Part shown: one piece after another, positions 20,212-20,777 of the stretch
Layout: each line of letters begins with the position of its first letter
How positions within the stretch are numbered: the stretch's first letter is position 1
NCBI RefSeq assembly: GCF_050920415.1
Contig: NZ_CP169309.1
Strand: one strand, 5' to 3'
DNA length: 64,000 nucleotides
Source of the DNA: Escherichia coli
GTDB lineage: Bacteria; Pseudomonadota; Gammaproteobacteria; Enterobacterales; Enterobacteriaceae
Position numbers and translations under genes: made by a program
The notes under the pieces: generated by a model
Told to the model about the DNA's origin: nothing
Databases searched by the model: none
What the model saw: the letters and a program-made list of their open reading frames with translations, nothing else

Positions 20212-20225
20212 TCTCTTTCAAAAAG

Positions 20226-20252
20226 ATAATCCAGGTTTCGCGCCTGGATTAT
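20226..20252. terminator. Terminator hairpin after ridA
   Basis: ataatccagg tttcgcg cctggattat inverted repeat. Confidence 0.7.
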
Positions 20253-20277
20253 CTGATTCAACCACGGAGGGTTGAAG

Positions 20278-20733
20278 ATGGCTAAATCCCGTTTCACAGA
20301 TAAGCAAATTGCTGAAATTTTACAGCAGTCAAAAGAGGGGGCATCTAATAAGGAGCTTTGTGAACACTATCAATTTAGCGTTAACACGCTGCGGCGCTGG
20401 CAAGAACAGCACGCTGACGGCATCAGAAGCGAATTAAAAAAAATAGAATCTAAAGCACAGATCGTCTTTCTGCTTTTCATTGCTATCGTCATTATACTCA
20501 CGCTTATATTTGGTAAACCTACAGGTGGATGGGCAATACCGCCTTTATTACTCTATTGTGTTTATTATATCCGCCTGTATCGCAACATCTCCGCCAGACA
20601 TATAAAAAAAGAAGACATTTTTCTCTCTCGTTCTGTTAATAACAGCTATAGCGCCCTTTATAATTTGAGCTGGACGTTTATTTGTTTTTTTATTTTTGCA
20701 GTAATCTATTTTTTTATTCAAGTGTTTTCGTAA
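20278..20733 (+). CDS. Hypothetical protein: N-terminal transposase-OrfA-like helix-turn-helix fused to 2-3 predicted transmembrane helices
   Basis: 151-aa ORF from ATG at 20278 with SD ggagg 7 nt upstream; N-terminus SRFTDKQIAEILQQSKEGASNKELCEHYQFSVNTLRRWQEQHADG resembles IS2/IS3-family OrfA HTH; C-terminal half strongly hydrophobic and AT-rich. Confidence 0.55.
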   Translation: MAKSRFTDKQIAEILQQSKEGASNKELCEHYQFSVNTLRRWQEQHADGIRSELKKIESKAQIVFLLFIAIVIILTLIFGKPTGGWAIPPLLLYCVYYIRLYRNISARHIKKEDIFLSRSVNNSYSALYNLSWTFICFFIFAVIYFFIQVFS

Positions 20734-20777
20734 CAGACTGACCTGAAAGAGTATTTCAGGCCAGCTTCATCACTTGC

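Follow-up and report, generated by a model that had tools for sequence, protein, structure and literature searches.

The 'transposase' gene between ridA and mgtA of Escherichia coli: a conserved host gene with a helix-turn-helix head and a predicted membrane tail

In some strains of Escherichia coli, the gap between the convergent genes ridA and mgtA holds a gene for a protein of 151 amino acids, which is named a transposase in automatic annotation. What is such a gene doing at this place? The question is addressed here for a stretch of 64,000 nucleotides of E. coli DNA (NCBI RefSeq assembly GCF_050920415.1, contig NZ_CP169309.1), which is referred to as the window. As judged from comparisons across genera, the gap is shown to hold a genuine protein-coding gene under purifying selection in both its halves, for which the heading transposase is wrong. 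With roughly even confidence, we read its product as a transposase OrfA-type helix-turn-helix (HTH) that has been exapted and tethered to the inner membrane, forming a minimal transmembrane DNA-binding regulator. The gene and its immediate surroundings are as follows.

20278-20733, plus strand: coding sequence of 151 amino acids, from ATG to TAA (WP_001130088.1), orthologue of Salmonella STM4457
20262-20271, plus strand: ribosome-binding motif CCACGGAGGG, seen as CCAYGGAG in most ridA-linked orthologues
19825-20211, plus strand: ridA, the gene upstream of the gap
20778-23474, minus strand: mgtA, convergent with the open reading frame in the gap

The gap holds this single open reading frame. 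A GGAGGG Shine-Dalgarno sequence (20266-20271) lies 6 nt before the ATG at 20278, and the stop codon is separated from that of mgtA by 44 nt. The GC content of the gene is 37%, and falls to 34% in the DNA encoding the membrane part; that of ridA and mgtA is 52-53%. The gene had already been annotated, PGAP naming WP_001130088.1 a 'transposase'.

Intact homologues of 148-152 amino acids are found in at least eight genera. They occur in E. albertii, E. whittamii and E. marmotae, in Salmonella enterica (subsp. enterica and subsp. salamae), in the Citrobacter freundii complex and other Citrobacter, in Klebsiella spallanzanii and K. aerogenes, and in Pseudescherichia, Superficieibacter, Phytobacter, Kosakonia, Leclercia and one Enterobacter sp.; UniProt A0ABC9NSK2 and A0A090V0Q1 are examples of database orthologues from Citrobacter, Klebsiella, Pseudescherichia and other genera. 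Identity amounts to about 59% with the Salmonella orthologue over residues 1-138 and to 41-56% with other genera. The ratio of non-synonymous to synonymous substitution rates (dN/dS) was estimated pairwise according to Nei and Gojobori; the estimates are valid as long as dS does not exceed about 2, the more distant genera being saturated so that no ratio can be computed. It lies between 0.10 and 0.18 for the whole gene, between 0 and 0.17 for the HTH half and between 0.13 and 0.38 for the membrane half; most of the comparisons by halves also fall at about 0.1-0.2. The HTH half is under the stronger purifying selection in seven of the eight comparisons with unsaturated dS, and in the eighth the halves are equal. 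Since the ratios for the whole gene are this low and the orthologues have remained intact across genera, the gene is neither a relic nor a chance reading frame.

The Salmonella orthologue, of 148 amino acids, is near-universal in S. enterica and is automatically named 'transposase' throughout. Its cluster comprises 475 sequence variants, several of which are present on at least 1000 contigs each, and Citrobacter variants are present on hundreds of contigs. The record of S. Infantis SARB27 (locus L030, 3501-3947) equates the gene with STM4457 of LT2 in its own note. STM4457 and the 'transposase' entries of other genera resemble the 151-residue protein in length, architecture and position after ridA. 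There is no difference in kind between them; none has been characterised, and the automatic name is the same for all. The Salmonella orthologue has a shorter third membrane segment than those of other genera, and one that has diverged further.

Is the automatic name justified? The OrfA protein of IS3-family insertion sequences (IS) combines an HTH that binds the IS ends with a leucine zipper for oligomerisation, and modulates transposition. Of the five features that define an IS3 element, the gene fails four. It does possess the N-terminal HTH_Tnp_1 domain (residues 2-51), and with OrfA of the IS3 family, or the TnpA type of IS2 (HTH_Tnp_1, PF01527), it has in common a three-helix N-terminal HTH with an L-x-R-W signature. 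Unlike IS3 OrfA, however, the protein lacks a leucine zipper, and the gene lacks a frameshift site, orfB with its DDE domain, inverted repeats and copy-number variation; instead, the HTH leads into membrane helices, and the locus stays the same from genus to genus. A DDE-encoding (rve) orfB, reached by a -1 frameshift, is absent, there being no rve match and no overlapping frame, and the 44 nt left before the mgtA stop offer no space for a second transposase frame. Neither terminal inverted repeats nor a target-site duplication was found in 20150-20850, where the search returned just a pair of local hairpins and chance repeats in AT-rich DNA, and the gene boundaries in the same interval are without direct repeats. 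Finally, there is no sign of mobility: the gene occupies a median of one place per genome, at the same site within E. coli and across genera.

Searches of PHROGs, of viral structures (Foldseek) and of phages (tblastn) returned no phage relatives. Three 'phage' records do carry the gene, each with 59.4% identity to the query (AFYI01000007.1, OR845502.1 and OR850934.1). They are a 501-kb Salmonella whole-genome shotgun contig and two 'phage' records of 2-5 kb, one of them labelled Escherichia phage, and the identical match in all three suggests that host DNA is present in these records. A role in defence was also considered with PADLOC and rejected: the only match was a weak one of the HTH to the 'DrmC' model of 88 positions (E 4.8e-4), and no defence genes adjoin.

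The head of the protein is the part for which relatives are known.

20281-20430, plus strand: HTH, residues 2-51, three-helix, IS3 OrfA type (Pfam HTH_Tnp_1)

Residues 2-51 match HTH_Tnp_1 with an E-value of 6e-9, and HTH_23 and HTH_28 more weakly, so that a DNA-binding domain is predicted. In NCBIfam, the best match is transpos_IS3, which at 17 bits falls far short of the cut-off of 160. In a tblastn search against plasmids, residues 1-57 align with the opening codons of annotated IS3-family transposases at an identity of 36-40%. The nearest proteins outside the family, in a scan of 1.8 billion proteins, are small OrfA-like proteins which themselves match transpos_IS3. In the third helix of the HTH, W41 is invariant, and L38, R39 and R40 are each kept in at least 90% of sequences. 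The same protein scan brought up three proteins with two to five tandem copies of an OrfA-type HTH: P0018 (258 aa), P0029 (286 aa) and P0030 (175 aa). P0018 additionally scores on the NCBIfam model of the CRISPR repeat-binding protein Cbp1.

Beyond the head, hydropathy in windows of 19 residues distinguishes two strong segments and a weaker one, which fall into the following parts.

20455-20511, plus strand: transmembrane segment TM1, residues 60-78 (hydropathy up to 3.07; in the model part of helix 35-78)
20533-20580, plus strand: TM2, residues 86-101, less hydrophobic, with C94, Y97 and I98 nearly invariant
20581-20667, plus strand: cytoplasmic loop, residues 102-130, with five K/R and the signature FLSRSGRG..N.FY..SW, here FLSRSVNNSYSALYNLSW
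20668-20727, plus strand: TM3, residues 131-150 (maximum hydropathy 2.32), with a predicted periplasmic C-terminus

An AlphaFold2 (AF2) model, run on an alignment of 19 sequences, has helices at 8-19, 24-31 and 35-78 in the HTH and TM1, and then at 87-106 and 126-150. In this model, the third HTH helix and TM1 form one continuous helix (35-78) through a short amphipathic linker. The mean predicted local distance difference test score (pLDDT) is 74 and the predicted template modelling score (pTM) 0.60; residues 112-123 fall below a pLDDT of 50 and appear as a disordered loop. Thus hydropathy and the model both point to a transmembrane protein. C94, Y97, R102, R118, Y128 and W132 are conserved family-wide; R102, at the cytoplasmic end of TM2, is invariant, and R118, Y128 and W132 belong to the cytoplasmic loop or the start of TM3. 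The basic residues are concentrated in the 29-residue loop before TM3 (five, against one in the 7-residue turn between TM1 and TM2), which favours an orientation with the N-terminus and this loop inside and the C-terminus outside. The predicted topology is therefore an inner N-terminus, a periplasmic turn of 7 residues, a conserved basic cytoplasmic loop and an outer C-terminus. For the residues beyond the HTH, no relative was detected in Pfam, PHROG or the PDB. A profile search of solved structures and Foldseek against the PDB gave nothing significant, except for a local likeness of the HTH to LuxR/GerE-type domains, and Foldseek against AFDB50 returned exclusively family members, all named "Transposase".

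A preliminary description of the gap, made from the letters alone, had noted a well-formed reading frame with a Shine-Dalgarno sequence, an OrfA-like HTH, two or three hydrophobic helices in markedly AT-rich DNA, the lack of a second transposase frame and of terminal inverted repeats, and a presumed absence from K-12. All of these observations hold, the last since two K-12-lineage genomes match via the ridA and mgtA flanks alone. It went on to propose either a domesticated fragment of an IS, with a product that binds DNA while tethered to the membrane, or a strain-specific insertion. The first proposal agrees with what has been found as far as the IS3-OrfA-type HTH, the immobility, the conserved synteny, the selection and the predicted transmembrane tail are concerned, and its DNA binding is to be read as a prediction; the second is taken up below.

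How could such a protein work? According to the reading put forward here, the DNA-binding head of a transposase would have been exapted, with membrane helices replacing the leucine-zipper oligomerisation region of OrfA, and the product would be a one-component transmembrane regulator with the architecture of BcrR. The HTH and the conserved juxtamembrane loop would lie on the cytoplasmic side, and any signal would be perceived inside the membrane or on its inner surface. An intramembrane or cytoplasmic input is suggested because HTH and loop are predicted to face the cytoplasm and only about 7 residues are exposed to the periplasm. More tentatively, and with clearly less confidence, it could be imagined that the OrfA head was captured early in the Enterobacteriaceae and fused to an AT-rich anchor that arose de novo, giving rise to a hitherto unstudied class of minimal tethered regulators (the STM4457 family), that the protein senses the state of the inner membrane via its loop, and that it controls chromosomal targets or restrains IS3-family elements.

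In a survey of transmembrane transcription regulators, these are defined by a predicted DNA-binding domain together with at least one transmembrane region (PMC10269533), and by its predicted domains the 151-residue protein falls under this purely predictive definition. HTH_Tnp_1 accounts for 45 of the 50,302 regulators catalogued there and, among the matches listed, two HTH_Tnp_1 instances are whole IS3 transposases. BcrR of Enterococcus faecalis, which is listed in Table 1 of that survey, is a membrane-bound one-component sensor and regulator for bacitracin. The likeness to BcrR is architectural only: an N-terminal cytoplasmic HTH leads straight into several transmembrane helices, with a negligible extracytoplasmic domain. 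BcrR has an XRE-type HTH, four transmembrane helices and about 200 amino acids, and adjoins its target bcrABD, whereas the 151-residue protein has a transposase-type HTH, three predicted transmembrane helices and no evident target operon. Between the two, no sequence similarity was detected. No HTH_3/XRE match was found, and three helices are predicted rather than four. Profile and fold searches yielded no homologue outside the family beyond the small OrfA-like HTH proteins.

ToxR, CadC and TcpP are likewise DNA-binding proteins anchored in the inner membrane, DNA binding being predicted in the case of the 151-residue protein. They are characterized by an OmpR-type winged HTH (Trans_reg_C), a single transmembrane helix, a sizeable periplasmic sensor and often a partner protein. 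The 151-residue protein has no Trans_reg_C match and a periplasmic loop of 7 residues, and its C-terminus ends with TM3. RodZ, too, has a cytoplasmic N-terminal HTH tethered via a membrane helix, but this HTH is of the XRE type and binds MreB; RodZ furthermore differs in having one transmembrane helix and a periplasmic domain, in being universal and in its much larger size.

Several observations weigh against a membrane-tethered DNA-binding regulator. The search for a conserved operator close to the gene gave no candidate and, when the upstream regions of ridA-linked and off-locus copies were compared, the ribosome-binding motif alone was in common, among most ridA-linked copies. The HTH region is only slightly basic, with 10 K/R against 8 D/E in residues 1-55. 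The AF2 confidence is moderate and the 19-sequence alignment behind the model is shallow; TM2 is weakly hydrophobic and may give way to an alternative topology with two transmembrane segments and an exposed loop. Truncated or frameshifted alleles occur (P0006, P0009, P0013 and P0054) and 92% of E. coli genomes are without the gene, so that in Escherichia selection seems to be weak or conditional. The literature search found no paper text mentioning STM4457 or the WP accessions, and searches combining HTH_Tnp_1 with transmembrane, or yjgF, mgtA and transposase, gave nothing on the 151-residue protein. Nor was a paper, curated family or solved structure found for it, all sources calling it "transposase".

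The explanation that survives best beside the tethered regulator, and to which we accord a smaller but real share of probability, is that the HTH does not serve transcription control. The protein might be a membrane adaptor that binds another protein, in the manner of RodZ, or a chromosomal OrfA-like modulator that binds the ends of IS3-family elements and sequesters or inhibits them. HTH folds are indeed reused for protein contacts, as by RodZ with MreB, and the modulation of transposition by OrfA is suggestive because the head of the protein is closest to OrfA. The modest positive charge of the HTH would fit as well, and this explanation stays in contention because neither an operator nor a conserved target neighbour was found. 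However, those residues of the third helix that characterise DNA-binding OrfA HTHs have been kept, there is no co-occurring partner gene, and the identity to real OrfA, at 36-40%, is too limited to imply recognition of a particular IS end.

It is rather unlikely that the function resides in the membrane part, for example in modulating a transporter such as MgtA or a pump of the SMR family, or in membrane stress, with an HTH that is vestigial or merely stabilising. There is a precedent in the small membrane proteins MgtS, MgtR and MgtU, which regulate MgtA and MgtB. The gene lies tail-to-tail with mgtA in most loci, and highly conserved residues are present in the membrane half and the cytoplasmic loop. 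Furthermore, two of the paralogues outside the ridA locus, from C. youngae (L013, 3453-4453) and Enterobacter sp. kpr-6 (L020, 3281-4447), lie just downstream of an SMR-family (EmrE-like) gene. Yet the HTH half is the more constrained one in the dN/dS comparisons given above, and it is therefore not vestigial. Adjacency to mgtA is not universal either: in C. freundii a TRAP transporter lies between the two genes, and in Superficieibacter mgtA is not nearby. The off-locus paralogues, with 41-44% identity (55% in C. youngae), are found in five unrelated contexts, and the SMR gene is their sole recurring neighbour. Others, with neither mgtA nor an SMR gene beside them, precede an alpha-2-macroglobulin gene (K. 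aerogenes) or stand beside an old-yellow-enzyme/LysR pair (Leclercia), and a Serratia paralogue is located near phage lysis genes. Since the paralogues have no common partner gene, the protein probably acts on its own.

The strain-specific insertion of the preliminary description, or more generally a recently acquired islet, is very improbable. It could be invoked for the low GC content (37% against 52% in the flanks), for the presence of the gene in just 8% of complete E. coli genomes (440 of 5426) and for the different DNA that K-12 carries at the same position. In these 440 genomes, the gene is always a single chromosomal copy between ridA and mgtA; the median is one place per genome, and in the lone genome with a further place this lies on a "plasmid" record. 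Two allele groups are present, one with at least 99% identity to the window (42 genomes) and the other with about 92.6% (397 genomes). Almost all gene-less E. coli listed have a ridA-mgtA span of about 440 bp, the length of the K-12 lineage. In NEB5-alpha, of the K-12 lineage (L003, 1640-1760), the ridA hairpin is followed by two palindromes resembling repetitive extragenic palindromic (REP) elements, gcctgatgcgctacgcttatcaggcctac and gccggataaggcatttacgccgcatccggca, and about 200 bp of these REP-like palindromes stand in place of the gene.

Against an insertion, the same slot immediately 3' of ridA holds the gene in E. albertii, E. whittamii, Salmonella, the C. freundii complex, K. spallanzanii, Superficieibacter, Phytobacter and Kosakonia. 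The gene directly follows pyrB-pyrI-ridA in 11 of the 13 species-representative genomes that encode a relative, and also in S. salamae and S. Infantis. The GC content of the orthologues tracks that of the host, from 36% to 56%, and divergence from E. albertii (90.4% identity) is on a par with what the flanks show (90-94%); boundaries with neither direct nor inverted repeats also speak against it. That the window allele came from E. albertii by introgression was considered as well and is unsupported, the divergence of the gene matching that of the flanks. Strain MY732 carries the gene between flanks that are 97-99% identical to K-12, and therefore the presence/absence polymorphism crosses closely related backgrounds. 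Because the slot after ridA is filled in sister Escherichia species, Salmonella, Citrobacter and Klebsiella, the polymorphism in E. coli most probably reflects loss and not gain. The simplest history, and the best reading of these comparisons, is that of an ancestral enterobacterial gene that has been lost from most E. coli.

A decaying IS remnant, pseudogene or chance frame in an AT-rich spacer, as the database label and the truncated alleles might suggest, is hardly credible in view of the purifying selection, the steady length of 148-152 amino acids across genera with saturated synonymous divergence, and a ribosome-binding site conserved in most ridA-linked orthologues.

Two 'plasmid' records also hold the gene. 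In NZ_AP023207.1 (pMTY18781-2, 93.8 kb, typed as a non-mobilizable plasmid; L031), the block bdcR-bdcA-yjgH-pyrLBI-ridA-gene-mgtA-mgtL-treR is present, and the 1.2-Mb 'plasmid' CP061270.1 likewise carries it; both are probably misfiled pieces of chromosome. In Phytobacter diazotrophicus and Kosakonia sp. S29 (L017 and L018, about 3797-4000), a REP-like insertion separates ridA from the gene, together with a second copy of the last 22 or so codons of ridA, which looks like a small duplication tied to the repeat element.

How the gene might be expressed can be approached from the signals around it. In this segment of the chromosome pyrB, pyrI and ridA precede the gap, and mgtA, its Mg2+ riboswitch and treR follow.

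20224-20254, plus strand: 13-bp stem-loop (GAUAAUCCAGG...CCUGGAUUAUC) directly after the ridA stop, from an inverted-repeat search and folding
20257-20276, plus strand: small 7-bp hairpin UUCAACC/GGUUGAA, in the minimum free energy and centroid structures, with the Shine-Dalgarno sequence in its loop and 3' arm
20636-20664, plus strand: sigma-70-like site TTAATA-17-TATAAT (10 of 12 positions) within the 3' part of the gene, directed at mgtA
20738-20764, no strand assigned: terminator-like hairpin common to both genes, between the convergent stops of the 151-codon gene and mgtA
23568-23683, minus strand: Mg2+ riboswitch upstream of mgtA (Rfam match)

In a promoter scan, the stretch from the end of ridA to the ATG at 20278 was free of sigma-70-like sites; a promoter-like site of ridA is located at 19759-19787. 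The site within the gene is probably a by-product of AT-rich coding DNA, the number of such sites being equal to the chance expectation. The 77-nt leader, with both 5' hairpins, folds at a dG of -27.7 kcal/mol (z -4.8). The hairpin after ridA lacks a 3' U-run on the plus strand, and CUUUUUG comes after it on the minus strand. Conservation of this hairpin extends over Escherichia, K. spallanzanii, Citrobacter and S. salamae and includes a compensatory replacement of G-C by A-U; K-12 also carries a related hairpin. The second hairpin is weakly conserved beyond Escherichia; by partly covering the Shine-Dalgarno sequence it may make the start of translation less efficient. Most ridA-linked orthologues have retained the motif CCAYGGAG(G) ahead of the ATG despite divergence of the remaining spacer; Superficieibacter sp. 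1612_C1 has it only in part, and S. salamae lacks it. The hairpin between the two stops has a dG of -20.3 (z -3.1) on the minus strand and of -12.8 on the plus strand, and an equivalent is found in orthologous loci. No Rfam family is present in the region of the gap.

On the basis of these signals, expression of the gene in this locus probably depends on ridA, at a low level, via read-through of the U-less ridA hairpin. Convergent transcription of mgtA would possibly damp it. Because of the CUUUUUG on the minus strand and the missing U-run on the plus strand, the hairpin after ridA could halt mgtA read-through that runs antisense over the gene. The absence of a promoter-like site of its own, the U-less hairpin and the partly occluded Shine-Dalgarno sequence together suggest that expression is low and conditional.

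Elsewhere in the window, the gathering-level matches to Rfam comprise three copies of the REP-derived naRNA4, at 6421-6496, 33727-33804 and 39958-40034 (minus strand), and Ysr276, STnc450 and ES239, in the intervals 5391-5585 (minus), 49139-49196 (plus) and 53794-53916 (minus).

The 151-residue family is thus uncharacterised and mis-annotated, and it represents an unusual domain combination rather than a new principle. Its members are labelled "transposase" in thousands of records of Salmonella, Citrobacter and E. coli, some with the Gene Ontology term "DNA transposition". Since the gene is an immobile and selected host gene, this label inflates the counts of mobile elements and hides the family from view; its absence from K-12 would explain why it has escaped study. 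If a tethered OrfA-type regulator is indeed what it encodes, it would be a clean bacterial case of the exaptation of an IS DNA-binding module and would rank among the smallest transmembrane DNA-binding regulators. The family is experimentally tractable, being nearly core in Salmonella and naturally polymorphic for presence and absence in E. coli.

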